This document shows, in pieces, positions 21,702 through 50,881 of a DNA stretch of 64,000 nucleotides. The stretch comes from Amphiscolops sp. MND2022. Its lineage: Eukaryota. A program made the translations under genes and the position numbers. Each line of letters begins with the position of its first letter. The first letter of the stretch is position 1. The notes beneath the pieces were generated by a model. The model saw only the letters and a list, made by a program, of their open reading frames with translations, was not told where the DNA came from and searched no databases. The stretch covers positions 22,136,001 to 22,200,000 of the forward strand of contig OZ076409.1 of the NCBI GenBank assembly GCA_964187785.1, in the 5' to 3' direction.

Positions 21702-24700
21702 TGTTCGAGGGAGTTTTCGGGGTTTTCGGGATGTTCGAGGTTTTCGGTGTTTTCGGGGTTCTCGGGGTTTGCGGAAAATCAATGCTGTCGAGGCTGTCGT
21801 CTGAATTGTCGTCGTCGCTGCCGTCTTCTTCCAAATTTCTGGCACGCTTCACTGCCGATCTTCTGAGGTCAAATGTTGAATTTAATGACGTCCACTGGTA
21901 GTTTTTAGGTCTCGGAGTTTCTTTCTCGACCTCTTCCTCAGTGCTCTCTTCTTCCTCCGGCAATTGCTCAGGCTCCACTGCCACTGTCCGCAGTGTGTTG
22001 CTGTAGATATTCAGCACCGCATTTCGATCTGCTTCGGTGACTCCTAAAAAGTTGCGTAAAATTTGTTAGAAATCAGACCATTTTGCGTGACCCTTAATAA
22101 CTAAAATACCAAGTTGCACAATTTTACTAATAAATACTAATAATAACCAAACATGCAACTTGGACAACTTTTCGCAAGTTGGACAGATTTCTAGCAAATT
22201 TAGGGGAAAATGAAAAATTTTTGCAAAATGTTTTCAAAAAGCTCCAAAACTGTTTCAGAAAGCAGGTTATCCCTCTTAGTGTTCAAGTTTGGTCGGAAAT
22301 GTTTCACTAATTTTGCAAGCGGGTGTTACTGTGAAAGAAATAGGCTCAAAAAGAGCCACTACTAAATGGTCTCGCTTGCTGAAGCCTTTACATGTTGGGA
22401 TTTAAGTTTCTGTCGAACATGTTTCTCAGCAATACAGCGGCAGTTGAATAAAACTGCATGAAGGAAAATTTCAGTCAGTTCCCAATGCTTTTTCTCACAG
22501 TCATCTTTTACGGTACTTGTTATTGTTAGTAATGTCGAGTTCATCGTTTTTGTTCAGATAGAAACGAAAGAAGTGACAACGATGGTATTAGTACTGTAAC
22601 ATAACATCTAACATAACTGCAGTGTTAGGTCTTGTCGCAGGCTGAAGCCTGTGACGGGACTAAAATCACAACAACCGCAGTCGGACAAGAAACGGCGACA
22701 GGTACTCTCCCAATTTATTGAATCAAGCTTAGGGAAAACTCAAACTTTTCATTTTCAAAACTCAAACTATGCTTCATTATTTTTTGCAGTTTGTGTGAAC
22801 TGCTCCTATTTTACACAATGTGTTAATCCCCTGAGTAACTATTATTTCGCCACTTTCTTCTAATTTTTTGACTTAAAAAAATCAAGTTTTTAAAATCTAG
22901 TCTATCTAACTATCTAAGGCATAATACTCAAAGTATAAAAGAGTCAGGTTTTGAAAACATGCATTTCATACGAGTGAAAGCAGTTTAAAATGTTTGGGAG
23001 AGAAATAAATAAACTTTTCAAGAATGAAAATGAGAACAGTTTATAACATTTAAACAAGTTTCTGCAGTTTTGTTGAATAATTACTGGAACGGGAACTTTT
23101 TGTTAACATTCATCCAGGCAGCCTTCACCTTGTGGTAAATCTTGTTAGCAGACACTTTGCTTAATTGCGGTTGAAACTCCTTCAAATTAGCTTCAACTTC
23201 TGCCTTTTGGATTGTCGGTAACGCCATATGGAAAAAACTGCATGCTAATTTTTCTTCTTCTGTCCAAGGATCTTTAGTGTTTCTGAATTGCTTCATGCTT
23301 TTAATATATAATTTTCGTTTTTTCTCCAAAATGTCAGGGGTGTTCGAGGGAGTTTTCGGGGTTTTCGGGATGTTCGAGGTTTTCGGTGTTTTCGGGGTTC
23401 TCGGGGTTTGCGGAAAATCAATGCTGTCGAGGCTGTCGTCTGAATTGTCGTCGTCGCTGCCGTCTTCTTCCAAATTTCTGGCACGCTTCACTGCCGATCT
23501 TCTGAGGTCAAATGTTGAATTTAATGACGTCCACTGGTAGTTTTTAGGTCTCGGAGTTTCTTTCTCGACCTCTTCCTCAGTGCTCTCTTCTTCCTCCGGC
23601 AATTGCTCAGGCTCCACTGCCACTGTCCGCAGTGTGTTGCTGTAGATATTCAGCACCGCATTTCGATCTGCTTCGGTGACTCCTAAAAAGTTGCGTAAAA
23701 TTTGTTAGAAATCAGACCATTTTGCGTGACCCTTAATAACTAAAATACCAAGTTGCACAATTTTACTAATAAATACTAATAATAACCAAACATGCAACTT
23801 GGACAACTTTTCGCAAGTTGGACAGATTTCTAGCAAATTTAGGGGAAAATGAAAAATTTTTGCAAAATGTTTTCAAAAAGCTCCAAAACTGTTTCAGAAA
23901 GCAGGTTATCCCTCTTAGTGTTCAAGTTTGGTCGGAAATGTTTCACTAATTTTGCAAGCGGGTGTTACTGTGAAAGAAATAGGCTCAAAAAGAGCCACTA
24001 CTAAATGGTCTCGCTTGCTGAAGCCTTTACATGTTGGGATTTAAGTTTCTGTCGAACATGTTTCTCAGCAATACAGCGGCAGTTGAATAAAACTGCATGA
24101 AGGAAAATTTCAGTCAGTTCCCAATGCTTTTTCTCACAGTCATCTTTTACGGTACTTGTTATTGTTAGTAATGTCGAGTTCATCGTTTTTGTTCAGATAG
24201 AAACGAAAGAAGTGACAACGATGGTATTAGTACTGTAACATAACATCTAACATAACTGCAGTGTTAGGTCTTGTCGCAGGCTGAAGCCTGTGACGGGACT
24301 AAAATCACAACAACCGCAGTCGGACAAGAAAAGGCGACAGGTACTCTCCCAATTTATTGAATCAAGCTTAGGGAAAACTCAAACTTTTCATTTTCAAAAC
24401 TCAAACTATGCTTCATTATTTTTTGCAGTTTGTGTGAACTGCTCCTATTTTACACAATGTGTTAATCCCCTGAGTAACTATTATTTCGCCACTTTCTTCT
24501 AATTTTTTGACTTAAAAAAATCAAGGTTTTAAAATCTAGTCTATCTAACTATCTAAGGCATAATACTCAAAGTATAAAAGAGTCAGGTTTTGAAAACATG
24601 CATTTCATACGAGTGAAAGCAGTTTAAAATGTTTGGGAGAGAAATAAATAAACTTTTCAAGAATGAAAATGAGAACAGTTTATAACATTTAAACAAGTTT

Positions 24701-25321
24701 CTGCAGTTTTGTTGAATAATTACTGGAACGGGAACTTTTTGTTAACATTCATCCAGGCAGCCTTCACCTTGTGGTAAATCTTGTTAGCAGACACTTTGCT
24801 TAATTGCGGTTGAAACTCCTTCAAATTAGCTTCAACTTCTGCCTTTTGGATTGTCGGTAACGCCATATGGAAAAAACTGCATGCTAATTTTTCTTCTTCT
24901 GTCCAAGGATCTTTAGTGTTTCTGAATTGCTTCATGCTTTTAATATATAATTTTCGTTTTTTCTCCAAAATGTCAGGGGTGTTCGAGGGAGTTTTTCGGG
25001 GTTTTCGGGATGTTCGAGGTTTTCGGTGTTTTCGGGGTTTGCGGAAAATCAATGCTGTCGAGGCTGTCGTCTGAATTGTCGTCGTCGCTGCCGTCTTCTT
25101 CCAAATTTCTGGCACGCTTCACTGCCGATCTTCTGAGGTCAAATGTTGAATTTAATGACGTCCGCTGGTAGTTTTTAGGTCTCGGAGTTTCTTTCTCGAC
25201 CTCTTCCTCAGTGCTCTCTTCTTCCTCCGGCAATTGCTCAGGCTCCACTGCCACTGTCCGCAGTGTGTTGCTGTAGATATTCAGCACCGCATTTCGATCT
25301 GCTTCGGTGACTCCTAAAAAG
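21702..25321. repeat. Tandem reiteration (period 1639 bp; one partial plus two full units) of the cassette left flank and last SET-YR exon
   Basis: Identical ORFs at 22362/24001 and 22651/24290; junction ctcctaaaaag|ttgcgtaaaa at ~22051 and ~23690. Confidence 0.95.
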
Positions 25322-28300
25322 CATTAACACTTTGTGTAGACAAGAAGTAAATTACACAAAAAGTTAAACACACAAGTTTTGTTTAAAAATGTTCAAAGCA
25401 AGAATATATCCAACCACATATCCAAGTGGATAAAAAATATTCAATATACTTACTCTGGTAGTGTTTCCTGGCCGTTGTCTCTGAGTGCGCGGTTTGGGCT
25501 AAATGGGCGTCTTTGTGATTTTGAGACAGTTCCAGCCCAGCCATATACATCTCCCAGAACTTTCGTATTGAGTTTGCGTTATATCGCACCAAGTTTGGAT
25601 CGTCCTGGAACAGTTCAGTAAAGGTGTCGCTGATTAAGTAAGACATTTTTGTCTCCTGCTGGGACTTCGTGTTCGCGAACATGAGGGAAGGCATTGTGGG
25701 GTACTCGCTCTTCATCCTTTCCCTCAATTCGTCCAAGAACGCGATTTGGTCGGCCTCAATCCTGACAGCAACGTCATAGAATTTCCCCGTCTTGTGGTCA
25801 CTGGTTTCATAGACGTGACCAGCTTTCAAGTGGGAGTCGAAGCACTCCCACGTCACGTTCAATATGGGCCCAGGCCTGACGTTGAGGCGACATTGAAGCA
25901 GAAAAAAGTTGAGAGCTTTCAAGGTAGTCGTCGTCAAGTTTTTCTCTTCCAAATCCCGCTCCAGCACCTCAATCACTTGCTGCTGCCTCTTTGTGACCTG
26001 CTGCAGACTGGGGACCCGGGAGAACTTGTCTTTCTTATTTTCTTTGGAACAACGCGCAAGATTTGGCGCAAATTTTCGTCTCGCGTCTCTCAGCGCCTTC
26101 TGCATGGTGGGAAGGCAGAATTCCTTTTTCATCTGCCTTTTCTCGTACGTGTGGCAGTAGTCAAGAAAAACTTTCAATTGGGACATGTATCAATTGGTTG
26201 TGCTTGGCTCCCATTGTCTTCTGAGCTCAACTCTAGAAAAAAAATGCAAAACTTAGAACATTTTTTGACCAACAGGTCTTTATGTGGTTGATCCATTCTG
26301 CAGTCCATGTTGCTTTGGGGATATGGCAACTTGGACAGTTTTTCAAGTTTTTCCTATCTGCAACTTGTCACTGAATTATATTATTTTATTTCATTAAATA
26401 TTTATGAAGAAAATAAATAAATACCTTTCAATAGCTGGAATCAGCGCTTTTGGTTCTGTTAACCCGAGCGTGTCCCCATAAATAATTGCTAGGAAGTTCT
26501 TCAGCGAGTCCCGTCCTCGCACGTCGCTGACGGTTTCGTCGGACAACCCTGAGCCTCTTTCTCGAAACTCGTGGTTGACGAAGTCTGTCACCAGAGACAT
26601 GTGACTCTCCCTCGGCAGATGACTATTGCGCAATTTTGCGCGCAGTTCAAGTGGAAGAGATCTAAAAACGGCAACTAACCAATAAAAAACTATCTAATAC
26701 AGCGATAATTAATTGTTTGTTTTTGATAACAACAAAAAATACCTTTTACTAGTGTGGTTAGCAACCACGGAGATAGAGTTGAGGTCGCATTTGTAATGTC
26801 TCTTGTGATCCAACTTGTTGGGAAATCGTCGATTGTGCTCCTCGCAATAAAAAATTTTGGTATTTTCATGCCGACCTCGGGTTCTCATAAAGTCCTTCAA
26901 ATTTCGAAGGTCCTTCTCAGTCAGCTCTGGATGAGCACGGATATAGTGCTTATCTATCCGTTTCGCTGTTTTTTCACAGATCAGGCACTGGGTGACTTCG
27001 TCATATTTGGTCTTTTTCTGGAGTTTGTTGACTTTCTGTTCTCTGGGGACCACACCCACAGCAGAAGTGCATTCAGGGACATCAGCTGCTGGTACTTCGC
27101 TTGTTAGGTTGACATGGCTGGAGTTCAGACCAACAGCAGAAACGCAATCAGGGACATCAGCTGCTGGTACTTCGCTTGTTAGGTTGACATGGCTGGAGTT
27201 CAGACCAACAGCAGAAACGCATTCAGGGACATCAGCTGCTGGTACTTCGCTTGTTAGGTTGACATGGCTGGAGTTCAGACCAACAGCAGAAACGCATTCA
27301 GGGACATCACTGGGCTGCCTAAACAAAAGAATATCTTTTTGTGTAATCAATCCGTATTATACAGAAGTTGTTATGTGGAATTGTTTGTCGGTAAAATGTT
27401 CACAGCCAAGACTTTTCTAAATTGATATGAGAAAAACGTTATTGCAATAAGTATGCTTACTCTTGGTTAGCGTATATTGAGCTGTTAGAAGCTGCTGGTA
27501 CTTCGCTTGTTAGGTTGACATGGCTGGAGTTCAGACCAACAGCAGAGACGCATTCAGGGACTTCAATGGGCTGTCTGAACAACTTCTCTGTGCACGGGTC
27601 ACAGGCGCATTCTTAGTTGTTGTTGCCAAAGTAATTTGTTCCATAAGAAACAAAAATTTCTTCGTTTTCTTCAATGTTTCTTATGGCCTCAATCCGCAAA
27701 ATTGTTCGGTTTTTTGTGGGACCTCCGCAAACATACACAGCATTTGGTTGACAGCTGTGGTTAACGAAACTTGCCGGTCCCAGCATGATTCGCTCCTTTC
27801 CAGATTTTCGCTCCGATCCGAAGAGCGAAAATGTGGGCGCATTATCCACGGCCTCTGCGAAATAACCATCAAGGCCCTGAATCTTGGAGCCCTTTTGCAG
27901 CCTCTTTCTGGCAAAAACTCCAAACTCATATCCAATTCCCGTGTAGCTCAGGACATCTTTGTATTTGACACTGTCAAACGATGTGGCGTAAGACTGCGTC
28001 ATTTCCCGGTACAAGGCCATTGCATGAGGCTTCGCCAGTATCGTGCAAATGTTTTCAGGGACTTCACAATATTTATGCGTTTTTTGGGTTTCAGAATCGA
28101 TGAATATGTGCGTCAGATGGGCTTCTATTAGGCCCAGCAGTGTATCGGGACGCATCACCTGCTCTGAGACAACAGCCGGTAGAGGCCGCGCATCACTGGG
28201 AGGCCCTTGGTATGCGATTGGACCCCCCACAGCTCCAGCACCACTTTCTGCCTCGGGTCTGGTGCCTAAAAAGATGTTTTGATATAAAAATTTTAGTTTA

Positions 28301-29060
28301 TAGCTGTTTCATCACTTCCTTAACAATTTGTGTAAACACCCCCTATTTTACACAATGAGTAAAAAACAATTTTATTTTGGTATTCAAACTCTACATGTAT
28401 TAAAATTTTACTTTATAGCTGTTTCATCACTTCCTTAATTTGTGTAAACACCCCCTATTTTACACAATGAGTAAAAATCAATTTTATTTTGGTATTCAAA
28501 CTATACATGTATTAAAATTTTACTTTATAGCTGTTTTATCACGTCCTTAACAATTTGTGTAAACACCCCCTATTTTACACAATTAGTAAAAAACAATTCT
28601 ATCTAATTTTTTACATGTATATTTTTACTTATTTTTACTTCTGACATGAAGATTAACGTTTTATGTAATCAACCCCTAAATTTAATAACTACTTACATCT
28701 ATCTTCCGATCCAGCAACGTCAGGCAGCTCTACAGCAGAGACTTCCGCAGCAGGAATTTCCATAGCAGGGACTTCCGCAGCAGGAATTTCCATAGCAGGG
28801 ACTTCCGCAGCAGGAATTTCCATAGCAGGGACTTCCGCAGCAGGAATTTCCCTAGCAGGGACTTCCGCAGCCGAATCTGGATAGGATGATACAGAGACAT
28901 CCGAAAGTGTTAACGAAACATTTCCAACCACCGCAATGTTGCTTGTCTTTTTGGCCGGCTGTTTTGAGCCAGGGTTCGGGTTTGGACGTTTTCCGATTTT
29001 CACGCCTCGAGTTGAACGAGTTACGCGGGCGACAGCACTTTGTGATCGAGTGCAAGGCAT
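24720..29060 (-). pseudogene. SET(SUV4-20-like)-zinc finger-tyrosine recombinase fusion gene, copy A; exons 29060-28697, 28265-27461, 27318-26743, 26661-26425, 26232-25454, 25313-24720
   Basis: All five introns are GT-AG with compatible phases (1,2,2,2,1). Lesions: TAA at 27613-27615, TGA at 26190-26192, frameshift in the last exon. Confidence 0.85.
28283..28620. repeat. ~113-bp tandem repeat (x3) in intron 1, each unit holding a 28-bp palindrome (also at ~42025-42360)
   Basis: Repeated tatagctgtttcatcacttcctt...ttgtgtaaacaccccctattttacacaa. Confidence 0.9.
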
Positions 29061-29477
29061 TGTGAAATTCAAGTTGAGAGCTTTCGAAATTTCAATTCAA
29101 ATTGAGAGTAAGTTGAGTTTGAGAAGCAAACGAAAATAATGGCAAAATTTTTGATGCTGTAAAACCTCCAAAAAAGCGTCTTTATTTCCTATTAACACAT
29201 AATTAGATTTGAACTCGAATTCGCCGCATTTCAATAATGATCTTAACTCACTTTAAGTCACTCCCATTAACATTTCCACCAATTCTCCTTAACACCAATT
29301 ATCTCATTATCACTTTTCGGGTCAACATTAGGATTTGTCAGGGAACCCCAAACAACCCAACCCCCCACACCGCCCCCCGGGGGTTGATATATAATGTTTT
29401 AAAAGTTAAATTAAATTATAAGATATTATAAAAATAAAATGTTAAATTAATTATAAAATAAAACAACCATTAAAAAA

Positions 29478-30690
29478 ACAATAAACCAATGTGAAATATT
29501 TGTTTTTAAATTCCGGATCACATAAAATTATTTCACTGTAATTTTTGTGCCTTAGATATACTCTCTATGTCCCCCCAAAGGCATCAGTACCAATTCTGAA
29601 CCAATTTTGAGGATATGTAAAAAATCGAAAAATTAGATACCATTTTCGACATGAAAAACAATAAACCAATGTGAAATACTTGTTTTTAAATTCCGGATCA
29701 CATAAAATTATTTCACTGTAATTTTTGTGCCTTAGATATACTCTCTATGTCCCCCAAAGGCATCAGTACCAATTCTGAACCAATTTTGAGGATATGTAAA
29801 AAATCGAAAAATTAGATACCATTTTCGATATGAAAAACAATAAACCAGTGTGAAATACTTGTTTTTAAATTCCAGATCATATAAAATTATTTCACTGTAA
29901 TTTTTGTGCCTTAGATATACTCTCTATGTCCCCCCAAAGGCTTCAGTACCAATTCTGAACCAATTTTGAGGATATGTAAAAAATCAAAAATTAGATACCA
30001 TTTTCGACATGAAAAACAATAAACCAATGTGAAATACATGTTTTTGAATTCCGGATCACACAAAATTATTCCACTGTAATTTTTGTGCCTTAGATATACC
30101 CTCTATGTCCCCCCAAAGGCATCAGTACTAATTCTGGACCCATTTTGAGGATATGTAAAAAAGTCGAAAAATTAGGTATTATTTTCGACATGAAACTCAA
30201 TCAAAACAATGTGAAATACATGTTTTTAAATTCCGGATCAAACAAAATTATTCCACTGTAACTTTTGTGCCTTAGATATACTCTCTATGTCCCCCCAAAG
30301 GCATCAGTACCAATTCTGGACCGATTTTGAGGATATGTAAAAAAGTCGAAAAATTAGGTACTATTTTCGACTATTTTCAGTCAAAACAATGTGAAATACA
30401 TGTTTTTGAATTCCGGATCACACAAAATTATTCCATTGTAATTTTTGTGCCTCAGATATACTCTCTATGTCCCCCCAAAGGCATCAGTACCAATTCTGGA
30501 CCGATTTTGAGGATATGTAAAAAAGTCTAAATATTAGGTACTATTTTCGACTATTTTCAGTCAAAACAATGTGAAATACATGTTTTTGAATTCCGGATCA
30601 CACAAAGTTATTCCATTGTAATTTTTTGCCTCAGATATACTCTCTATGTCCCCCCAAAGGCATCAGTACCAATTCTGGACTGATTTTGAG
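29478..30690. repeat. ~180-bp tandem array, about 7 units (copy A)
   Basis: ctctctatgtccccccaaaggcatcagtac recurs at ~180-bp spacing. Confidence 0.95.
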
Positions 30691-31319
30691 AATGCGTATC
30701 TATTTGTTAGAAATTCTTACAAAAAATGCGATGTGTTATTTTGACCAAAAATTCGTTCAAGATTTTGGGTTAGATTGTCATAAATTAGGAAGCAGCAGAA
30801 TAATAGCTAAGGAGTAATATCTAAAACGATTTCGGGAATAATATCTAAAACTGATATGGCTAAAATCATTTTTCGGGAATAATATCTAAAGTTTTCGTCA
30901 TAATCTCTGCTATTTTTGCTATTTTCTTTGAGTGTTGATGGTTTGCTCGATTTTGACATACTTCCTTGAATTTCAATTGAACATTCCGGCATATTTTCCG
31001 TTTTTAGATACAATTCTCAGTTTTAGATCTTATTCCTGTTTTTTTTAGATACAATTCCTCCAATTTGCATTTTAGATACTATTCCTTTAGATATTAATCT
31101 CGACATTGTTTTAGATATTATTCCTTAGATACTGTTCCTGGTTTGATGACTTCTTTTTTAAAAACTCAATATTTTAGATCTTATTCTGTTAGATCATATT
31201 CCGTTAGATCTCAGGCGCAACGTGTTTTAGTTAGATCTTATTCCGTTAGATCTTATTCCGATTTGGTGTCTAAGATCTTAGGCGTTAGATCTTATTCCGT
31301 CTTCCACATAAATTTTAGA

Positions 31320-31856
31320 TGAAAATGGTCCAAATTTGGAATATTGTCGTAAATTTGATGCCTATTTAGAGGATCTTTACTCGACGACGAATGTGACATG
31401 AGTCGACGTAATAATCTCAGTCTATGTGCTCTTAGAAAATTTGACTTCGTCTGGAAAAACCCTTTCATAAAAATCCCCATGAAACTATTCATATATCAAA
31501 CTTTTGTGAAACCCATCTTCCAATATAATAATCTTCCAATAGAGAATAAACTTGATGTTTTTCAGAGAAAGCATCTGAGATATTTCCTAAACATTTTCTA
31601 CCCAAAGAAAATCCACAATAAAGAACTATACAAGATCACAAATAACCAACCCTTCTCCGAATCTGTGAGATTCTTTCGAAAACATCACCTTGGTCATCAT
31701 TTGTAGAGACATTGCCCAAAAGAAAAAGAGGACCCCGCCCTCCAACGATCCTGAAAACGTACCGAAAAGACCTTGGAACAGACAATTGGCTCAAACTCGA
31801 AGAGCTGGCTTTTGCGAGGACGATATAGCTATCGGATAATCTCGTACTACTACTAT
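31320..31856 (+). mobile_element. 3' fragment of an RTE-like LINE within copy A
   Basis: KLFIYQTFVKPIFQY...KLDVFQRKHLR..LNI...NKELY...LGH and a short (CTA)n tail. Confidence 0.7.
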
Positions 31857-32004
31857 TTAGTGCCTATTTCAGAAGTAGTGTTCTTGTCTTGAAGTCGCAG
31901 CTACTTGCGAATTTGTCTACTTTCGAATTACATACAATTCATAGAGCGAGAGACTCTACTATTCATCTACACCCGGACCTCTACTCTACTGGAACAGCAT
32001 CGAC

Positions 32005-41400: not shown

Positions 41401-42816
41401 ATTTCTTCGTTTTCTTCAATGTTTCTTATGGCCTCAATCCGCAAAATTGTTCGGTTTTTTGTGGGACCTCCGCAAACATACACAGCATTTGGTTGACAGC
41501 TGTGGTTAACGAAACTTGCCGGTCCCAGCATGATTCGCTCCTTTCCAGATTTTCGCTCCGATCCGAAGAGCGAAAATGTGGGCGCATTATCCACGGCCTC
41601 TGCGAAATAACCATCAAGGCCCTGAATCTTGGAGCCCTTTTGCAGCCTCTTTCTGGCAAAAACTCCAAACTCATATCCAATTCCCGTGTAGCTCAGGACA
41701 TCTTTGTATTTGACACTGTCAAACGATGTGGCGTAAGACTGCGTCATTTCCCGGTACAAGGCCATTGCATGAGGCTTCGCCAGTATCGTGCAAATGTTTT
41801 CAGGGACTTCACAATATTTATGCGTTTTTTGGGTTTCAGAATCGATGAATATGTGCGTCAGATGGGCATCTATTAGGCCCAGCAGTGTATCGGGACGCAT
41901 CACCTGCTCTGAGACAACAGCCGGTAGAGGCCGCGCATCACTGGGAGGCCCTTGGTATGCGATTGGACCCACAGCTCCAGCACCACTTTCTGCCTCGGGT
42001 CTGGTGCCTAAAAAGATGTTTTTATATAAAAATTTTAGTTTATAGCTGTTTCATCACTTCCTTAACAATTTGTGTAAACACCCCCTATTTTACACAATGA
42101 GTAAAAAACAATTTTATTTTGGTATTCAAACTCTACATGTATTAAAATTTTACTTTATAGCTGTTTCATCACTTCCTTAATTTGTGTAAACACCCCCTAT
42201 TTTACACAATGAGTAAAAATCAATTTTATTTTGGTATTCAAACTATACATGTATTAAAATTTTACTTTATAGCTGTTTTATCACGTCCTTAACAATTTGT
42301 GTAAACACCCCCTATTTTACACAATTAGTAAAAAACAATTCTATCTAATTTTTTACATGTATATTTGTACTTATTTTTACTTCTGAAATGAAGATTAACG
42401 TTTTATGTAATCAACCCCTAAATTTACATTACTTACATTACTTACCCCATTACTTACATCTATCTTCCGATCCAGCAACGTCAGGCAGCTCTACAGCAGA
42501 GACTTCCGCAGCAGGAATTTCCATAGCAGGGACTTCCGCAGCAGGAATTTCCATAGCAGGGACTTCCGCAGCAGGAATTTCCATAGCAGGGACTTCCGCA
42601 GCAGGAATTTCCCTAGCAGGGACTTCCGCAGTCTGGTTAGGGTGATACAGAGACATCCGAAAGTGTTAACGAAACATTTCCAACCACCGCAATGTTGCTT
42701 GTCTTTTTGGCCGGCTGTTTTGAGCCAGGGTTCGGGTTTGGACGTTTTCCGATTTTCACGCCTCGAGTTGAACGAGTTACGCGGGCGACAGCACTTTGTG
42801 ATCGAGTGCAAGGCAT
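38445..42816 (-). pseudogene. SET(SUV4-20-like)-zinc finger-tyrosine recombinase fusion gene, copy B; exons 42816-42458, 42007-41206, 41063-40463, 40381-40145, 39952-39174, 39046-38445
   Basis: SET: FSLFGSERK..IMLGPASFVNHSCQPN...EEIFVSYG..YFG..NEECACDPC. YR: RPG, HKTG, NSIRK, AHS, ARKHY. Lesions: 5-bp deletion in exon 1 and 25-bp insertion in exon 3. Confidence 0.85.
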
Positions 42817-43233
42817 TGTGAAATTCAAGTTGAGAGCTTTCGAAAATTCAATTCAAATTGAGAGTAAGTTGAGTTTGAGAAGCAAACGAAAATAATGGCG
42901 AAATTTTTGATGCTGTAAAACCTCGAAAAAAGCGTCTTTATTTCCTATTAACACATAATTAGATTTGAACTCGAATTCGCCGCATTTCAATAATGATCTT
43001 AACTCACTTTAAGTCACTCCCATTAACATTTCCACCAATTCTCCTTAACACCAATTATCTCATTATCACTTTTCGGGTCAACATTAGGATTTGTCAGGGA
43101 ACCCCAAACAACCCAACCCCCCACACCGCCCCCCGGGGGTTGATATATAATGTTTTAAAAGTTAAATTAAATTATAAGATATTATAAAAATAAAATGTTA
43201 AATTAATTATAAAATAAAACAACCATTAAAAAA

Positions 43234-45167
43234 ACAATAAACCAATGTGAAATATTTGTTTTTAAATTCCGGATCACATAAAATTATTTCACTGTAATTT
43301 TTGTGCCTTAGATATACTCTCTATGTCCCCCCAAAGGCATCAGTACCAATTCTGAACCAATTTTGAGGATATGTAAAAAATCGAAAAATTAGATACCATT
43401 TTCGACATGAAAAACAATAAACCAATGTGAAATACTTGTTTTTAAATTCCGGATCACATAAAATTATTTCACTGTAATTTTTGTGCCTTAGATATACTCT
43501 CTATGTCCCCCAAAGGCATCAGTACCAATTCTGAACCAATTTTGAGGATATGTAAAAAATCGAAAAATTAGATACCATTTTCGATATGAAAAACAATAAA
43601 CCAATGTGAAATACTTGTTTTTAAATTCCAGATCATATAAAATTATTTCACTGTAATTTTTGTGCCTTAGATATACTCTCTATGTCCCCCCAAAGGCATC
43701 AGTACCAATTCTGAACCAATTTTGAGGATATGTAAAAAATCAAAAATTAGATACCATTTTCGACATGAAAAACAATAAACCAATGTGAAATACATGTTTT
43801 TGAAGTCCGGATCACACAAAATTATTCCACTGTAATTTTTGTGCCTTAGATATACTCTCTATGTCCCCCCAAAGGCATCAGTACTAATTCTGGACCAATT
43901 TTGAGGATATGTAAAAAAGTCGAAAAATTAGGTATTATTTTCGACATGAAACTCAATCAAAACAATGTGAAATACATGTTTTTAAATTCCGGATCATATA
44001 AAATTATTTCACTGTAATTTTTGTGCCTTAGATATACTCTCTATGTCCCCCCAAAGGCATCAGTACCAATTCTGAACCAATTTTGAGGATATGTAAAAAA
44101 TCGAAAAATTAGATACCATTTTCGATATGAAAAACAATAAACCAATGTGAAATACTTGTTTTTAAATTCCAGATCATATAAAATTATTTCACTGTAATTT
44201 TTGTGCCTTAGATATACTCTCTATGTCCCCCCAAAGGCATCAGTACCAATTCTGAACCAATTTTGAGGATATGTAAAAAATCGAAAAATTAGATACCATT
44301 TTCGATATGAAAAACAATAAACCAATGTGAAATACTTGTTTTTAAATTCCAGATCATATAAAATTATTTCACTGTAATTTTTGTGCCTTAGATATACTCT
44401 CTATGTCCCCCCAAAGGCATCAGTACCAATTCTGAACCAATTTTGAGGATATGTAAAAAATCAAAAATTAGATACCATTTTCGACATGAAAAACAATAAA
44501 CCAATGTGAAATACATGTTTTTGAAGTCCGGATCACACAAAATTATTCCACTGTAATTTTTGTGCCTTAGATATACTCTCTATGTCCCCCCAAAGGCATC
44601 AGTACTAATTCTGGACCAATTTTGAGGATATGTAAAAAAGTCGAAAAATTAGGTATTATTTTCGACATGAAACTCAATCAAAACAATGTGAAATACATGT
44701 TTTTAAATTCCGGATCAAACAAAATTATTCCACTGTAACTTTTGTGCCTTAGATATACTCTCTATGTCCCCCCAAAGGCATCAGTACCAATTCTGGACCG
44801 ATTTTGAGGATATGTAAAAAAGTCGAAAAATTAGGTACTATTTTCGACTATTTTCAGTCAAAACAATGTGAAATACATGTTTTTGAATTCCGGATCACAC
44901 AAAATTATTCCATTGTAATTTTTGTGCCTCAGATATACTCTCTATGTCCCCCCAAAGGAATCAGTACCAATTCTGGACCGATTTTGAGGATATGTAAAAA
45001 AGTCTAAAAATTAGGTACTATTTTCGACTATTTTCAGTCAAAACAATGTGAAATACATGTTTTTGAATTCCGGATCACACAAAAATATTCCATTGTAATT
45101 TTTGTGCCTCAGATATACTCTCTATGTCCCCCCAAAGGCATCAGTACTAATTCTGGACTGATTTTGA
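43234..45167. repeat. ~180-bp tandem array, about 11 units (copy B)
   Basis: Same monomer as 29478-30690. Confidence 0.95.
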
Positions 45168-45794
45168 TAATGCGTATCTAATTGTAAGAAATTCTTACAA
45201 AAAATGCGATGTGTTATTTTGACCAAAAATTCGTTCAAGATTTTGGGTTAGATTGTCATAAATTAGGGGAGCGGAATAATAGCTAAGGAGTAATATCTAA
45301 AACGATTTCGGGATTAATATCTAAAACTGATATGGCTGAAATCATTTTTCGGGAATAATATCTAAAGTTTTCGTCATAATCTCTGCTATTTTTGCTATTT
45401 TCTTTGAGTGTTGATGGTTTGCTCGATTTTGACATATTTCCTTGAATTTCAATTGAACATTCCGGCATATTTTCCGTTTTTAGATACAATTCTCAGTTTT
45501 AGATCTTATTCCTGTTTTTTTAGATACAATTCCTCCAATTTGCATTTTAGATACTATTCCTTTAGATATTAATCTCGACATTGTTTTAGATATTATTCCT
45601 TAGATACTGTTCCTGGTTTGATGACTTCTTTCTTAAAAACTCAATATTTTAGATCTTATTCTGTTAGATCATATTCCGTTAGATCTCAGGCGCAACGTGT
45701 TTTAGTTAGATCTTATTCCGTTAGATCTTATTCCGATTTGGTGTCTTAGATCTTAGGCGTTAGATCTTATTCCGTCTTCCACATAAATTTTAGA

Positions 45795-46331
45795 TGAAAA
45801 TGGTCAAAATTTGGAATATTGTCGTAAATTTGATGCCTATTTAGAGGATCTTTACTCGACGACGAATGTGACATGAGTCGACGTAATAATCTCAGTCTAT
45901 GTGCTCTTAGAAAATTTGACTTCGTCTGGAAAAACCCTTTCATAAAAATCCCCATGAAACTATTCATATATCAAACTTTTGTGAAACCCATCTTCCAATA
46001 TAATAATCTTCCAATAGAGAATAAACTTGATGTTTTTCAGAGAAAGCATCTGAGATATTTCCTAAACATTTTCTACCCAAAGAAAATCCACAATAAAGAA
46101 CTATACAAGATCACAAATAACCAACCCTTCTCCGAATCTGTGAGATTCTTTCGAAAACGTCACCTTGGTCATCATTTGTAGAGACATTGCCCAAAAGAAA
46201 AAGAGGACCCCGCCCTCCAACGATCCTGAAAACGTACCGAAAAGACCTTGGAACAGACAATTGGCTCAAACTCGAAGAGCTGGCTTTTGCGAGGACGATA
46301 TAGCTATCGGATAATCTCGTACTACTACTAT
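45795..46331 (+). mobile_element. 3' fragment of an RTE-like LINE within copy B
   Basis: Equivalent to 31320-31856. Confidence 0.7.
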
Positions 46332-46479
46332 TTAGTGCCTATTTCAGAAGTAGTGTTCTTGTCTTGAAGTCGCAGCTACTTGCGAATTTGTCTACTTTCG
46401 AATTACATACAATTCATAGAGCGAGAGACTCTACTATTCATCTACACCCGGACCTCTACTCTACTGGAACAGCATCGAC

Positions 46480-49322
46480 ATGGACCCACCTTTTCGAGAC
46501 AGCAGGCCTCAATGTAGCGGTAAGTTGCTTTATTATTCTTTTTCCTAGTATACTTAAAAATTTAGGCCTACATGTAAAACAAAAGGTGGATATTATCAGC
46601 AGAGATGCACCTGAAAGAAAAGAAATTATTGTTATTGTTGTTGCAGAAAAATGAATAAGAACATAAGAGCAAATGACATAAACACGAAATTATCGTATAA
46701 TCCGGCGTATTTACCCCCCCCCCTTTTGAATATTTGACTATCATTTACACACACCACAAAAAACACCCAAATTTCGTATTATGACTACAAAATGGGCAAA
46801 CCCTTCTAAATAATTTTTTACAATTTATATAAAAAACGGTGCCAAGTTGCTGCTAAGAAAAAAATGAAAAACTGTCCAAGTTGCCATTTCCCCAAAGCAA
46901 CATGGGCTGCAAAATGGACCAACCCCCTATAAAGTTACCGTGCAAATATGTTAATTTGAAACATTTTTTAGTATGCAAAGAACGGTTTGCAACAAGTGGA
47001 ACCCTCAAGAGACACATGGAGCAAAAGAAACGCTCTTGCATGGAGAAACCGGTCGGGACCCGGTGTATGTTCTGCGGCTATGGGCCTTCCGGTGAGGAGT
47101 TTGAAAACAGGTGGAGGCTGTCGGAGCACGCTCTGGGCAAACTCTGTCACTCGATCATGCAGTTTCAATGGTCGAGTACAGATCAGCAACAGGTCAGAGC
47201 GCGTGGACAACTCTTGCTCCCCACAGAGAGGAATGTTAAGAACCTAATAAGCGAGAGGCATCTGAACTCTTTTGCGAGGCTCCTAGAGCGCGACTCGAAT
47301 CGGTTGGGATGGATGCCAACCTTGGACCAGGTCAACAAAACTCGGATCGCAAACCAGAAGCCCCCTTTAGACAGTCTTCCCGCCGTCAGAGAGACGAACG
47401 AGTCTGCCGCCCAAGAGGACCCAGTTCCATCCGCCCAAGAGGACCCAGTTCCATCCGCCCAAGAGGACCCTGCTGCCACCCAACTTCTCACCGTCACTGG
47501 TGATCCACTACCTTTTATCGACATCTCCAGCTCCGCAAACACTGTCACTGTCAAAAGTGACATTTATTTCAATTTCCCTTCAGAAAGTTGTAATTCTATG
47601 ATGAAAAACCGGCCAGCTCTGGACGCTTGTTTTGATGCTGCTTCCACCAGTTCGATTGAATTCGTAAAGGTTCTGTTGGCAAGAGATGTTGAAAATTCTT
47701 TGCCTCAACTCTCCGGCGACATTCGTGTCATCAAAGTGCAGGATCCACACAATCTGACAGGACTACGCTCCACAATTCCTTCCTCATGTATTCGCCAACC
47801 TTTTAAGGAATGTCTGTTGTCTCTGGGAAACTGCAATCAGATGATTTCCCATCCCCTTTCGGTGAGACACTACGGTGATGACGGCAAAGAAAAGATTAAG
47901 AAGCAGACGTTCCAGCAATTTGTCGACTCCTTGGGTGGACCAAATCCACTTAACGTCATCGACTGTTTTCCACCTTGTTTGTTTTCCCAAATTGTTGAAT
48001 ATTTTGTTCAATCGAGGCCCCTAATTTTACTGAAGCACCTGAAAACTGAAAACTTCTTTTTGGAAACAGCCATCGACAAACAAATTTGTTTATTTCCATT
48101 CTTTCCGAAGATGTTTTGCTTGTTTATTTCAGAAGATGCTGCTCTCTGTGACTTCGAGCTACCGGCAGTGATTAAGGGAGTGTCACTGTACCACCAGTTT
48201 TTGGAGAAGCTCCCTCGTAGCCTTATCCATAATTCGCTGGACAAGTACCTATTGCTGACCGAGAAAGGCGCAATAACTCCTTGGCATGTAGATTTCTCGG
48301 GCACAAGCGTATTTTACTTGCTTGTACGAGGCCAAAAGGAGTTCCTTGTCATAGAGCCAACCCCCGAAAACATGAGGAAGTATTCGGATTTCAAACGAGA
48401 CAAAATGTAAGTTGACAATCTGGTTCTTTTACCTGATATATCGACGTAATTTAACGTACTTAACTCATTGTGTAAAATGTAAGGTGTTTACACAAACGGT
48501 TAATCTTCATGATCGAGTGTATTTAGGAACGACGTTGTGTTCGGGACCGATCCTACACTCAAATGTCGGAAGGTTATCCTGAACCAGGGCGAGGGATTGA
48601 TCCTACCAGGCGGTGTTCCTCACATGGTCAGGACTACTGAGCACTCCATAGCAAGAGGAGCTAACTTTCTGTGGGACAAAACCCTGAGTAAGTTAAACAA
48701 AGTTTTGTTCTAATGTAATGAATAAAGGTGTACCGGACAGCAATACCGGTATCTCAAATGTCTGTGACCTCAAATATCTAAGCAAAGATTTATGTATTCT
48801 GAGATTAAATGCTGGAATAGTCGAGGCTAATTTTAGAAATGGCTGTTTTAGATTTGATCACAGACGTTTACATGCAAGAGAAGAAGCAAGCCTTGCGTGC
48901 GGATGAGCGGTACCCCTCGCTACCCGCAATCCTCCTGCTGTGGGTTATGGATAACCTTGAGAACCCGAATTGCCTCAAAGTCGCTGAGATGCTAATCAGC
49001 AAGGAGGCAAGAAGGGAGACGACAAACTGCGCGGTAAGTTTCTTTCACTTGTCACCCATGTCAAATAAAATATCTGTCCATATACGTGCATAACGCAGCG
49101 TTGTGCGTGTCTGTCATGTGTCTGTCCGTCGCTTGGGTTCTATTATTGGTCTCGTTGGGTCGAACACCTGCACATGATTCAAGCAAACTTTGTTAGATTT
49201 TGTTTTGTGTTTAGAACAAACTGAAGAAGCACAACAGTTGTTTCTGGTCTTTTGATGAGCTGAAGCAGCATGTCACTGATGCAGAGAGTCGCAGCGTCCT
49301 ATGCGGAAGCCACACAATTTGA
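46480..49322 (+). CDS. Zinc finger + KDM2/KDM7-type JmjC histone demethylase-like protein (646 aa); exons 46480-46519, 46972-48406, 48527-48687, 48837-49033, 49215-49322
   Basis: Spliced CDS is 1941 nt and open. Exon 1-2 junction builds PQCSVCKERF..LKRH. JmjC: KYLLLTEKGAITPWHVDFSGTSVFY...GQKEF...GEGLILPGGVPHMVRT...GANF; ERYP helix follows. Confidence 0.85.
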
Positions 49323-50881
49323 GATCCATCTAAGCCACAAAACTTAGAGAACTAGATTTGGAGAACTTTAGAGAACTAGAACTGCCTATATTTGCCTTAT
49401 TTTAGTGTTATTGAAGCATTTTGTTAGTGTTAGCAACTGTAACTGAAACATAACTGTAACTGTAACTGAAATGCATATAACTTGCATTTCAGGTCTTGTG
49501 ACATATTTGAAATTTTGAACCCATTTTTGAACTCCTCGATGAGCATTTCCTTGATTTCAGGCTTTCTTTTCGACCATTTTTTTTCTAAATTTCATTTGTG
49601 AAAAACGTAACTTTAACTGAAATTTGAAATCAATTCAGTTGCCTAACACTACATTTAGTGTTTTCATTGTTTCTTCTTGGACAGTATTTGGTTGTCATGT
49701 TAGTTTAGAAAGAACATTTTAAATGAGAAACTATATTTTTATTCAAGAACAAATGTGCTTTCGTGTTGGGCGGGGGGGGGGGGGTTTGGGGAATTCACAA
49801 CACGATGTACCTGGGGGTGCGGACCTTGGTAAATACTGAAAAATGAGTAATTTTAAGGGCGTTCGGTTCTAAATGAATAATTGCAATCAATCGCAGTAAT
49901 TAGGTTCACATTCGCGGATAAATAATGTAAAGTGACCTAGCATGAATTCATCGTATGATCATTAATTGTTTTTGTATCTAGTTTTGCCCATAAATTACAT
50001 TACCAATTATTTTGCTTGTTTCAGTGAGACCCTTCAGAGGCCACGTTCCCGACGTGGGTCTTGTTATGGGTGACACAATGTGATCCCCAAACTGAGAGCC
50101 TCTTTAAAAATACATTATACTGGGAAAAAGTGATGATTTGTTGTGAATTTATCATAGCAACCACTTGTTCCCGACATTTTTGTTATCAACATTGGTGCAA
50201 CAATTAACAAAAAAATCTCTTTTTGAACTTAATCCTAGGGGTATTTGAGTTTTACTTAGAAATTTTCAAATTATACTTGTTTCATTATTTCATTTACAGT
50301 TTGTGTAAATTCCTTGTATTTCACACAATTTGTTAAAGCGACTGAGTATGTTGAGATATGAATTCTGAGTTGCAGCGTCTTGTGCAGAAGTCATTTGTTT
50401 TTTAATTTTACCAAAAAAGGGCAATTTTGCTTTCCATGTTGCTCAAAAATTATTAATTTTGGTTATTATTGTGGTCATTAATTTTTCCTGCTGAAAAGTT
50501 TGTGGAAACTGGTTGTTTGGTTATCAAAAGGCCCAATTATGATTTAATCCTAATTTCCGCTGCTGCAACAATGTTTTTTTATCAATTTTTATTTCGTTGA
50601 AAATCGGACCATCTTGCCAAAATTTTTCGGCAACTTGGGTTCCAGCTCGACGCAAGTTGGAAACAATTCAATTTTTTCAATTTTTTTGTAAGTTGTGCAG
50701 AACTTTCTTTCAGTGAAAAAAACGAAAGATATGGCCCCAGGCAGTACCAGATTTTTTTTTGGAAAAAAATTCCCACTGGAAAATTTTTTTGGGGGTTGTC
50801 CCAGTTGCTGTCCATGTTGCTCTGAAGATATGGCAACTTGGCAAGTTTTTCAATTTTTTCTCACCAGCAACTTGTCCCTGA

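Follow-up and report, generated by a model that had tools for sequence, protein, structure and literature searches.

A probable Crypton-like DNA transposon family with terminal inverted repeats, a predicted SET-tyrosine recombinase fusion and a predicted JmjC gene

We describe a family of DNA transposons that is probably moved by its own tyrosine recombinase (YR). The window (the whole stretch of 64,000 nucleotides that was analysed) holds one near-complete and one decayed copy, and we put the probability of this reading at roughly 70%. What is new is a YR DNA transposon that resembles the Cryptons but has inverted repeats, and that carries a predicted SET domain and a predicted JmjC gene. The ~13 kb unit is a real, dispersed mobile element and not one domesticated locus. 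Movement by the YR, like any action on chromatin, is what we infer; for mobility we argue from the anatomy of the element, as neither an excision circle nor an empty site nor a polymorphic insertion was observed.

An earlier note on this DNA had described a ~13 kb cassette in two copies, in which a minus-strand SET-zinc finger (ZnF)-YR gene and a plus-strand ZnF-JmjC gene stand head-to-head around a 180-bp array. This arrangement is present in both window copies (Table 1), which are 97.5-98.8% alike by self-BLAST (23714-30690 versus 37433-44447, 97.5% identity; 29479-32213 versus 43954-46688, 98.6%; 32213-34798 versus 47844-50442, 98.8%). Copy 2 is missing its left ~220 bp, including the left terminal repeat, which was lost in an N gap; because of this 200-N gap, both the first ~220 bp and the true spacing to copy 1 are obscured. 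The same kind of assembly gap lies at the left edges of the copies that we call C3, C5a and C2. In copy 1, 2.2 tandem repeats of the left 1,639 bp occupy 21702-25327, 1,156 bp are deleted at 32213 (within JmjC exon 1), and the right end breaks off at 34798, where ATATATAT follows; no intact terminal repeat is present. Both genes were intact together in none of the single copies examined.

Table 1. Coordinates of the element copies and their features in the window
Feature	Position	Strand	Basis or remark
Element copy 1, degraded	21702..34798	+	Self-BLAST, end comparison
180-bp tandem array, copy 1, 6.8 units	29474..30690	.	Tandem-repeat finding
200-N scaffold gap	37233..37432	.	Directly abuts left edge of copy 2
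Element copy 2	37433..50886	+	Self-BLAST; right end is the same base as in the C5 copy
SET-ZnF-YR gene, copy 2	38445..42816	-	Six inferred exons, GT-AG junctions
SET-ZnF-YR exons, copy 2	42816-42458, 42007-41206, 41063-40463, 40381-40145, 39952-39174, 39046-38445	-	Inferred
SET-domain exon, with NHSC motif and post-SET CxCxxC	41206..42007	-	Pfam SET E 1.1e-11; PDB KMT5B
Linker of 75-bp (25-aa) coding repeats, then paired CxxC...HxxxH zinc-finger region	40463..41063	-	TRF 40799-41054
~95-bp copy of right-end module, in intron between exons 4 and 5	40006..40104	-	TIR-like sequence and two CAAGTTGC motifs
YR catalytic exon	39174..39952	-	Alignment, AF2 model, Foldseek, VIA
Last exon: acidic linker and C-terminal four-helix domain	38445..39046	-	Conserved in relatives
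180-bp tandem array, copy 2, 10.8 units	43230..45167	.	TRF; between divergent genes
Second internal end-module copy	46826..46936	+	Just upstream of, and overlapping, the JmjC start codon
ZnF-JmjC gene	46902..49322	+	Four inferred exons: 46902-48406, 48527-48687, 48837-49033, 49215-49322
Right terminal inverted repeat, 20 bp	50867..50886	-	Exact reverse complement of C60 and C5 left repeat
(TA)n-rich microsatellite, right-end flank	50887..50950	.	Sequence inspection

Across the 1.07 Gb genome, the YR exon occurs at 14 places with 81-100% identity. At 12 of the 14, SET and JmjC exon matches lie alongside in the expected order, on at least 9 contigs. The linkage between the JmjC and YR genes is kept elsewhere, and it also holds in a family with 35-59% protein identity. 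Together with shared termini that bear inverted repeats, the dispersal of the YR exon upholds the proposal that this is a mobile element. Three families share the terminal repeat, and all three encode the same type of YR gene beside the left end. In family 2 (35-59% amino acid identity), one 623-aa ORF encodes SET-ZnF, and the YR, the C-terminal exon and a JmjC gene are present as well; in family 3, which has a GGGCC variant of the repeat, the C-terminal exon of the YR gene lies 4 kb inside the left end. The head-to-head layout is not conserved, as both genes of family 2 run in the same direction, and the 180-bp array is restricted to a young subfamily, being absent from the diverged C1599 copy and from family 2. 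The SET-ZnF-YR architecture recurs in two unrelated metagenome records, P0040 (895 aa) and contig L057, the latter with a break at the same ZnF/YR point.

It is very improbable that the SET-YR and JmjC genes are domesticated host genes in segmental duplications, or that the window copies are an artefact of assembling two haplotypes. Such an account could point to the scaffold gap at which copy 2 begins, the gaps at several copy edges, and the difference of only 1-2.5% between the copies, but it has to face at least 12 other places, spread over 9 or more contigs, whose flanks are unrelated, a graded divergence of 78 to 99% with two more distant families besides, and window copies that differ structurally by a deletion, by array length and by truncation. 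The exact termini with inverted repeats are also common to the copies. Dispersed copies with exact shared termini rule out host genes or an assembly artefact as the sole explanation.

The host carries metazoan-type genes and transposons. Nested in one copy of the element is an unrelated 18.8-kb inverted-repeat transposon with a KMT5A-like SET, a KDM7-like JmjC and a 1,003-aa putative transposase.

The SET, ZnF and YR parts are predicted to belong to one spliced gene, as had been proposed. Exons 1 and 3 of this gene contain frame breaks in copy 2; in the copy at C5:22.505 Mb, the same five inferred GT-AG junctions yield an open SET-ZnF-YR frame of 1,117 aa. The ~1,117-aa protein would combine a KMT5B-like SET domain with paired zinc fingers, a SAM-like N-domain, the catalytic domain of the YR and, at its C-terminus, a helical domain. 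The ZnF-to-YR intron (~80 nt in family 1 and ~160 nt in family 2) is in phase 2 at an identical codon position, and the frame is kept in both families. Family 2 has no intron at the exon 4/5 point where family 1 holds a copy of the right-end module.

The description of the SET domain as SUV4-20-like agrees with its Pfam match (Table 1) and with its closest solved relatives, KMT5B/SUV420H1 (E 4.4e-14). It aligned to KMT5B residues 165-243 with GPASFVNHSCQPN, FVSYG and CACDPC, and the NHxC motif, catalytic Tyr and post-SET Cys cluster expected of a KMT5B/C (SUV4-20) SET domain are all present; the predicted domain is closest to KMT5B. The zinc-finger region has weak ROS_MUCR and C2H2 matches, and its consensus is kept in 16 relatives. 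For the C-terminal four-helix domain (AF2 helices at 119-199), structure comparison gave no clear fold match, with a best Z of 5.9.

The YR had no Pfam or PDB sequence match, and its identity comes from its AF2 model (pLDDT 87.2) and its residues. The 35 Foldseek matches listed are nearly all tyrosine recombinases; the exceptions are a protelomerase and a phage repressor. VIA gave Z scores of 12.6 to XerH (171 aligned, rmsd 3.7), 12.1 to Cre/Tre (247 aligned) and 11.1 to Tn1549 Int, and the first 29 rows of its listing are YR-type proteins, followed by topoisomerase IB. Across both tools, the best fold matches were XerH, Cre, XerA and Tn1549 Int. The catalytic residues (numbered in ORF 39103-39972) are R126, H153-K154-T155-G156, R230, H256 and Y265; in an alignment of 26 sequences, R126 is invariant and the others are at least 90% conserved. 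One departure is that Asn takes the place of the first His in the classical HxxR box (NSIR). With both a modelled Cre/XerD/lambda Int fold and the catalytic residues found, the YR is confirmed as a genuine member of the tyrosine recombinase superfamily, as first suspected from its sequence. Relative to three more diverged copies, the YR exon has a dN/dS of 0.15-0.24, which indicates purifying selection. Pfam searches of 11 ORFs of the element, and of 70 further ORFs of at least 55 aa in copy 2, matched no reverse transcriptase, in accord with the earlier note, and no DDE transposase; the YR is the sole recombinase found in the element.

In the ZnF-JmjC gene of copy 2, the inferred junctions give an open spliced frame of 656 aa. 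Exon 1 matches KDM7 residues 174-226 at E 3e-7 and holds the HxD motif; the match resumes in exon 2 with KDM7 228-282 (E 7e-5), where the second His lies. The HVD and GQK of exon 1 align to HID and GEK of KDM7, and the PHMV of exon 2 aligns to IHAV. The protein thus has the Fe(II) ligands (HxD...H) and the 2-oxoglutarate Lys of the KDM2/KDM7/PHF8 core, and exons 1 and 2 align to KDM7, KDM2A and PHF8, which bears out the proposed KDM2/7-like JmjC; the predicted domain is closest to KDM7/KDM2/PHF8. Of the companion reader domains PHD, CXXC and F-box, Pfam found none in the 517-aa JmjC exon 1, and the N-terminus of the protein has Cys/His-rich motifs only.

Full-length copies are bounded on both sides by perfect 20-bp terminal inverted repeats, which are directly flanked by (TA)n or (TAA)n microsatellites. 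One and the same 20-mer, in inverted orientation, is present at the left end of the C60 copy, at the right end of window copy 2, and at both ends of C5. The terminal 19-mer has 35 genome matches with at most one mismatch, versus 0 for a reversed control, and 16 of the 19 terminal copies examined lie next to 12 nt or more of (TA)n or (TAA)n. The DNA that flanks the C60 copy on the left is itself repetitive, with 37 other matches in the genome; 28 of these stop no more than 2 nt from the last base of the flank, a point that precedes the (TA)n tract by ~30 bp and the terminal repeat by ~55 bp. The ends are under-sampled because 4 of the 7 left ends inspected adjoin assembly gaps. C5 is the only copy with both ends visible, and its flanks permit, without proving, a reading as a TA duplication. 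The motif CAAGTTGC occurs 17 times in the window versus 2.5 expected, a count that none of 100 shuffles attained, and all but 2 of these occurrences fall within the ends of the element or in modules that resemble them.

Perfect 20-bp inverted repeats with TA beside most ends are a classical DDE signature. We reject an autonomous DDE cut-and-paste transposon, as copy 2, family 2 and 4.5 kb of family 3 contain no DDE/RNase-H-fold transposase or DDE domain. An unlikely alternative is that a DDE transposase encoded elsewhere, which targets TA or (TA)n, moves the element as a non-autonomous inverted-repeat transposon, with SET-YR and JmjC as cargo that has no role in transposition. Ginger2-type DDE elements with a 46-bp inverted repeat do insert into (AT/TA)n in crabs (PMC10871703, in part), and the same genome has the unrelated inverted-repeat element with its 1,003-aa putative transposase, in which SET and JmjC are apparent cargo. 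Cryptons, moreover, are described without inverted repeats in the parts of PMC3212892 and PMC13465315 covered. Cargo status would nevertheless sit poorly with the same YR-type gene next to the left end in all three families that share the repeat, and with the purifying selection on the YR exon. Furthermore, the flanks are long microsatellites rather than bare TA, and inverted arms around a short spacer are how a YR site on a circle is expected to look (PMC3212892, in part).

If instead the element is moved by its own YR, as we favour, the recombinase would excise it as a circle, in which the two inverted repeats would face each other across an AT-repeat spacer and make a lox-like site with two 20-bp arms. 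Re-integration would follow by strand exchange between the circle and any (TA)n or (TAA)n tract in the genome whose sequence fits the spacer; the inserted element would then have microsatellite on either side but no target duplication of fixed length. The CAAGTTGC motifs, which cluster near both ends, would likely be accessory sites at which the zinc fingers or the C-terminal domain bind. It is not expected of a clean site-specific mechanism that 3 of the 5 visible right ends (copy 1, C3 and C5a) are truncated at differing points, each then followed by (TA)n.

Less probable still is that the circle is the main living form, an episome or virus-like replicon that replicates extrachromosomally and occasionally integrates by its YR, like endogenous nimaviruses. 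The C2H2, SAM-like and YR architecture and the repeat-targeted insertion do resemble the telomere-repeat YRs of nimaviruses (PMC10871703, in part). Head-to-tail tandem copies, which occur in the window and in C2, would be expected if circles integrate beside resident copies. A writer of H4K20 methylation could in principle aid replication licensing. Yet no gene for a capsid, a polymerase or packaging was found among the ORFs of the element, a viral contig collection yielded no relative, and the element is only 13 kb, with genes that have putative spliceosomal introns.

Within our preferred reading, a transposon moved by its own YR, the role of the chromatin enzymes is the weakest step. We propose that the fusion of SET to the recombinase would bring a methyltransferase of the H4K20 type to wherever the recombinase binds. 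The separately expressed JmjC enzyme would remove repressive H3K9me2, H3K27me2 or H4K20me1 over the element, and the two activities together would keep it expressed and competent for recombination. The element may in this way edit its own chromatin, as the earlier note proposed, and rewrite the marks by which such elements are normally silenced. Marks of the KMT5B type are usually repressive, which is a poor fit with an anti-silencing role. We also raise, tentatively and with more doubt than belief, the idea that transposons of this animal lineage have made a strategy of rewriting histone methylation: in one genome, two unrelated families of DNA transposons would each have an H4K20-class SET writer and a KDM7-class JmjC eraser, and in the YR element the writer, fused to the recombinase, would mark exactly where the recombinase binds, while the eraser would strip the silencing marks of the element. 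The writer's mark could then serve to license the excised circle for replication or repair, or to prime nucleosomes at the target.

The earlier note knew of no named animal family with this combination of writer, eraser and YR, and no YR element with SET or JmjC is described in the literature searched (Repbase and Dfam were outside the scope of this search). DIRS, Ngaro and VIPER retrotransposons, which have a reverse transcriptase and RNase H beside the YR, are ruled out, as no reverse transcriptase was found among the ORFs searched. SETMAR likewise joins a SET domain and a transposon recombinase in one protein, but it is a single-copy host gene with a captured mariner DDE transposase, whereas here the fusion is to a YR in a mobile, multi-copy element. 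A catalogue of fusions between transposable elements and chromatin proteins (10.1101/2021.11.30.470311) reports, in the part covered, mostly reader domains, then SNF2_N remodellers and SET, and the words "recombinase" and "Crypton" occur 0 times in that part. Endogenised giant viruses of Amoebidium similarly show a parasite-borne homologue of a JmjC demethylase that lacks host reader domains, and the authors proposed that this KDM4-like protein interacts with host chromatin silencing (PMC11244446). That case differs in having a KDM4 rather than a KDM2/7 JmjC, in a giant virus rather than a 13-kb transposon, and in having no paired methyltransferase.

Crustacean nimaviruses have YRs with C2H2 and SAM-like domains that insert into microsatellite-like repeats (PMC10871703, in part), and like them this element inserts into simple-sequence repeats of the host; the likeness drawn here is one of description. 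Nimaviruses are viral genomes of 200-300 kb that target (TAACC)n, and for those with a YR, the part of PMC10871703 covered reports no SET fusion, JmjC partner or defined inverted repeats. Starships too have a YR gene at one end and cargo genes, some have terminal inverted repeats (PMC13465315, in part), and a circular intermediate has been reported (10.64898/2026.09.21.753150 and PMC13465315, each in part). However, they are 27-700 kb long, are known only from Pezizomycotina, and have a DUF3435 "captain" YR and host-adaptive cargo. We exclude membership, given the ~13 kb length, the metazoan-type host, and the lack of a Pfam DUF3435 match among the window exons and 21 relatives.

The closest comparison is with the Cryptons (CryptonF/S/A/I; Goodwin 2003, Kojima & Jurka 2011), in which a YR is likewise the sole recombinase, there is no reverse transcriptase, and a second, accessory gene is optional. 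Their proposed route is excision as a circle and then integration via short homology with the target. No Pfam match to DUF3504 (CryptonA) or GCR1_C (CryptonF) was found among the window exons (E <= 0.1) or 21 relatives (E <= 0.01). As described in the parts of PMC3212892 and PMC13465315 covered, Cryptons have no terminal inverted repeats and are flanked by 4-6 bp direct repeats, and the accessory genes listed there are a C48 peptidase, an HTH domain or DDE (MarCry). This element shares with Cryptons a YR without reverse transcriptase, but it has perfect 20-bp inverted repeats and microsatellite flanks in place of short direct repeats, a predicted SET domain fused to its YR, and a predicted JmjC gene.

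The earlier note described one unit that occurs twice in the window, and our self-comparison of the window bears this out: 23714-30690 matches 37433-44447 at 97.5% identity, 29479-32213 matches 43954-46688 at 98.6%, and 32213-34798 matches 47844-50442 at 98.8%. To go beyond the window, we searched the 1.07 Gb assembly with the exon that encodes the putative tyrosine recombinase (YR). We found it at 14 places (81-100% identity) on contigs C1, C2, C3, C4, C5, C10, C60, C690, and C1599. At 12 of the 14, a SET exon lies about 2 kb off and a JmjC exon comes next in the expected order; one further place has JmjC fragments alone and the last has neither. The linkage of the JmjC gene to the YR gene, which the note allowed might be peculiar to this locus, therefore holds at 12 places and also in a second family (family 2, below). 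When four near-identical copies were compared along with their flanks, homology ended at common points and the flanks were unrelated, so that the dispersed copies with shared boundaries that the note had proposed looking for do exist. Family 1 (the window element and its close copies) is a real and recently active family, with copies 97-99% alike.

The SET domain (Pfam E 1.1e-11) has KMT5B/SUV420H1 as its best solved relatives (E 4e-14), and the NHSC motif, the region of the catalytic tyrosine, and the post-SET CxCxxC all align with KMT5B. JmjC exon 1 aligns to KDM7 174-226 (T..HxD and the lysine; E 3e-7), with KDM2A and PHF8 close behind, and exon 2 continues the KDM7 alignment at 228-282, second histidine included. 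Given these alignments, the labels first assigned by eye, "SUV4-20-like" and "KDM2/7-like," were correct. Both domains have their catalytic residues, and both are kept across families.

The recombinase was recognized from its fold and its catalytic residues. A PDB sequence search with the single YR exon or with a 26-sequence profile found no recombinase, neither the YR nor 21 relatives matched Phage_integrase, DUF3504, or DUF3435 in Pfam, and we found no longer homologous proteins containing the YR exon. An exhaustive phmmer search gave 109 relatives. In an alignment of 26 sequences (A1), R126 is invariant and HKTG153-156, R230, H256, and Y265 are nearly so. Foldseek ranks tyrosine recombinases first for the AlphaFold model (pLDDT 87.2). 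With VIA, XerH scores Z = 12.6 (171 residues aligned, rmsd 3.7) and Cre scores about 12 (about 240 residues aligned); 91 chains reach Z ≥ 8 and topoisomerase IB ranks after the recombinases, although for helical proteins a Z below about 13 can be unspecific. Because the ranking of the fold matches is consistent and the catalytic residues are conserved, we consider the predicted tyrosine recombinase to be a firm assignment, and the fold check that the earlier note wanted for it came out in its favor. The stretch between SET and YR has paired CxxC...HxxxH zinc fingers (ZnF) and a SAM-like N-domain, and the last exon terminates in a conserved four-helix domain. For this C-terminal domain, the AF2 model was usable at 119-199 and a wide fold search returned unrelated helical proteins (Z ≤ 5.9).

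The exon models of both genes (see table) are predictions from the genomic sequence. In the SET-ZnF-YR model, every junction is a canonical GT...AG and preserves the frame. When the copy-2 junction strings are transferred to the copy at C5:22.505 Mb, the predicted frame is open for 1,117 codons; with the same junctions, there is a stop at codon 338 in copy 1 (the degraded window copy) and at codon 59 in copy 2 (the near-complete one). The spliced ZnF-JmjC frame of copy 2 would be open for 656 codons. The intron between ZnF and YR lies at the identical codon and phase in families 1 and 2 (about 80 nt versus about 160 nt), and this is good evidence that SET-ZnF-YR is a single predicted protein. 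Against three more diverged family-1 copies, dN/dS of the YR exon is 0.15-0.24. Most of the intron that separates exons 4 and 5 consists of a copy of a ~95-bp module from the element's right end, and family 2 lacks an intron at this point; the intron looks as though it arose from an insertion of the element's own sequence. The linkers of the SET-YR gene contain coding tandem repeats of 75 bp (25 aa), whose number varies between copies, and of 30 bp (10 aa), and its intron 1 contains a 112-bp repeat.

Features of the window (strand given where the feature has one)
Feature	Position	Strand	Remarks
SET-ZnF-YR gene, copy 2	42816-42458, 42007-41206, 41063-40463, 40381-40145, 39952-39174, 39046-38445	-	six inferred exons
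ZnF-JmjC gene, copy 2	46902-48406, 48527-48687, 48837-49033, 49215-49322	+	four inferred exons
SET-YR gene repeats (75, 30, and 112 bp)	40799-41054, 42495-42631, 42025-42344		and copy-1 equivalents
180-bp tandem array, copy 1	29474-30690		6.8 units
180-bp tandem array, copy 2	43230-45167		10.8 units
200-N scaffold gap	37233-37432		copy 2 starts immediately after
Tandem repeat at left of copy 1	21702-25327		1,639-bp unit, x2.2
Right-end module in exon 4-5 intron	40006-40104, 26286-26384		
Second internal right-end module	46826-46936		region around JmjC start codon
115-aa ORF	45834-46181, 31359-31706	+	one in each copy
LRPAP1-like (Alpha-2-MRAP_C) exon	36299-36589	-	between the copies
Double jelly-roll capsid domain	52237-52860	-	Pfam E 3e-11; Polinton/Maverick-like fragment
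A32-like packaging ATPase	53117-53500	+	weak match; Polinton/Maverick-like fragment
GIY-YIG ORF	2359-2874	-	presumably Penelope-like
DEAD-box helicase gene	7063-8190	+	single long exon

Copy 1 has lost 1,156 bp of JmjC exon 1 (breakpoint 32213) and is cut off on the right at 34798. On its left, a 1,639-bp unit made up of the YR gene's last exon and the subterminal region is repeated in tandem; the junction falls 16 nt within the terminal repeat and connects position 17 of that repeat to an exon-6 acceptor region. The two copies are separated by 2.4 kb of unrelated sequence. Both contain a 115-aa ORF with no Pfam match that by eye resembles the C-terminal tail of a non-LTR retrotransposon reverse transcriptase, and which is probably an old fragment that travels with the young subfamily. 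The 180-bp array between the two genes is not a core functional part, because it is missing from the C1599 copy and from family 2.

The element has defined ends. The same 20-mer, inverted, is found at left ends (C60 and C5) and at right ends (copy 2 and C5), and a genome search for the terminal 19-mer that allows one mismatch gives 35 hits, versus 0 for the reversed control. A (TA)n or (TAA)n tract of at least 12 nt directly adjoins 16 of 19 terminal occurrences; 2 others have short AT runs and 1 has none. In the only copy with both ends visible, at C5:22.24-22.29 Mb, (TAA)n is present at each side. In the C60 copy, the sequence to the left of the element is itself repetitive and has 37 other matches across the genome. 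Of these, 28 stop no more than 2 nt from the last base of the flank; from that base it is about 30 bp to the (TA)n tract and about 55 bp to the terminal repeat. Since so many matches end there, it is possible that the AT tract was already at the tail of this repeat before insertion. We counted 17 occurrences of the octamer CAAGTTGC in the window (2.5 expected; 0 of 100 shuffles reach 17), and 15 of the 17 are in element ends or in the two internal copies of the right-end module. These octamers are candidate accessory binding sites.

What moves the element? The YR gene is common to all three families that have the terminal repeat (families 2 and 3 are described below), so we infer that the YR is the recombinase that the element uses. 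In an excised circle, the joined ends would place two 20-bp inverted arms around an AT-repeat spacer. Two inverted arms around a spacer is how YR core sites are classically built, a point made in general terms in excerpts of PMC3212892. Strand exchange between the circle and any genomic (TA)n/(TAA)n tract that matches the spacer would then yield flanks like those observed, and the head-to-tail neighboring copies in the window and on C2 would fit circles that integrated beside resident copies. The rival explanation, which is still alive, is that a TA-targeting DDE transposase acts in trans: TA adjoins most element ends, and excerpts of PMC10871703 describe Ginger2-type elements as targeting (TA)n. 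However, besides the presence of the YR gene in every family, we found no DDE transposase in the 81 ORFs of copy 2, in the family-2 ORFs scanned, or in 4.5 kb of family 3. The same scans found no reverse transcriptase, as the earlier note had claimed for the element. Overall, we give YR-mediated mobility into AT microsatellites a probability of roughly 0.7. One observation does not fit this mechanism: 3 of the 5 visible right ends (copy 1, C3, and a C5 copy, C5a) are cut at differing internal points (window-equivalent 50442, 50522, and 50677), each with (TA)n directly after. Our guess is that these arose by deletions spreading out of the unstable (TA)n tract. Junctions of the element also seem hard to assemble: 4 of 7 inspected left ends (copy 2, C3, C5a, and C2) lie exactly at the edge of a 200-N gap, and there is an assembly gap at each head-to-tail junction. 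Three small contigs (C60, C1599, and C690) break close to the element's right end.

Two more families share the terminal repeat. Family 2 (at least 6 copies; locus L055) begins with an exact copy of the 19-mer, preceded by (ATA)n, and its proteins are 35-59% identical to those of family 1. It encodes the N-terminus, SET, and ZnF in one 623-aa ORF, followed by the SAM-like domain and YR, the C-terminal exon, and a ZnF-JmjC gene. The head-to-head layout around an array, as first described, is correct for the window copies, whereas in family 2 the JmjC and YR genes run in the same direction and the array is absent. Thus, the predicted genes point to the YR-JmjC linkage as essential and to the head-to-head layout as not. 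In family 3 (at least 7 copies with 98-99% identity across 1.5 kb; loci L033-L035 and L058, for instance C3:63134441-63140459), a long (ATA)n is followed by a terminal repeat that differs at one base; inside this left end come about 4 kb of sequence of low complexity and then the YR gene's C-terminal exon.

Outside the host genome, we found the SET-ZnF-YR-C-terminal architecture in two cases: P0040, an 895-aa metagenome protein, and L057, a 3.3-kb metagenome contig whose SET domain matches Pfam at E 2.7e-14 and which is broken at the corresponding point between ZnF and YR. Other YR relatives are ZnF-YR proteins without SET. Searching with a further alignment (A3) matched one metagenome contig, the 3.3-kb L057, and no viral contigs, and P0040 matched no metagenome contigs. 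In the Atlas, the nearest clusters are from Chordata and Mollusca and are labeled "hypothetical protein," and the clusters of 10 YR relatives have no informative names. The JmjC exon and the family-2 SET region, used as queries, matched unnamed ENA proteins alone.

The C5:22.24-22.29 Mb copy (L018-L022, C5:22240001-22290000) is interrupted in intron 1 of the SET-YR gene, at the equivalent of window ~28400, by an 18.8-kb element whose inverted repeats are unrelated to those of the YR element. This second element encodes a 1,003-aa ORF, present in at least 13 near-full copies, with no Pfam or PDB sequence match; comparison with the YR profile ruled it out as a YR relative, and the RAG1/Transib-like clusters that it reaches in the Atlas (scores of 0.80) are no more than weak leads. 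It also encodes a SET ORF closest to KMT5A/SETD8 and a JmjC ORF closest to KDM7, PHF8, and KDM2A. A further ORF looks Tudor- or chromo-barrel-like by eye. Therefore, a predicted H4K20-type SET and a predicted KDM7-type JmjC are found together in two unrelated transposon families of one genome.

In the YR element, the writer (SET) is apparently fused to the recombinase, and the eraser (JmjC) would have a separate start, with a copy of the end module immediately upstream of it. Our best guess, which we hold with far less confidence than the mobility itself, is that the JmjC enzyme would strip repressive methyl marks from the element while the SET domain would mark H4K20 where the recombinase binds. 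The purpose may be anti-silencing, priming of recombination, or aid to the replication or repair of the circle; the idea of circle replication comes from the link between H4K20 and origin licensing. Transposons are usually regarded as passive targets of chromatin silencing, and to our knowledge there are few exceptions, such as integrases with reader domains, some retrotransposons with DNA methyltransferases, TET/JBP genes adjoining KDZ transposons, and KDM4-like genes in endogenized giant viruses. Here, a histone methyl writer and eraser are in one element and are kept together across families that share only about 50% protein identity. If our reading is true, this is a direct case of a mobile element that carries its own chromatin-editing kit. 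It would also widen the picture of eukaryotic YR transposons to include lox-like inverted-repeat arms and insertion into AT microsatellites, and its compact recombinase, aimed at simple repeats and joined to a chromatin enzyme, would be an experimentally tractable system for studying site-specific recombination against nucleosomes.

Among known systems, SET-transposase fusions include SETMAR and are cataloged in 10.1101/2021.11.30.470311 (as excerpted), and KDM4-like JmjC genes occur in endogenized giant viruses (PMC11244446). In the portions of the full-text literature that our searches returned, which did not extend to Repbase/Dfam entries, there was no description of a YR element with SET or JmjC. 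Starships are ruled out by the lack of DUF3435, the 13 kb size, and the animal host. For a YR with C2H2 and SAM-like domains that inserts into simple repeats, the closest published parallel is the endogenous nimaviruses of crustaceans, as described in excerpts of PMC10871703. Like Cryptons, our element is a YR-only DNA element without reverse transcriptase. In contrast, Cryptons as described in excerpts of PMC3212892 and PMC13465315 lack inverted repeats and have short direct repeats, and the element differs on both counts; it also lacks the DUF3504 and GCR1_C signatures in Pfam. By these descriptions it is set apart from Cryptons, and a YR DNA transposon with a writer-plus-eraser kit appears to be new.
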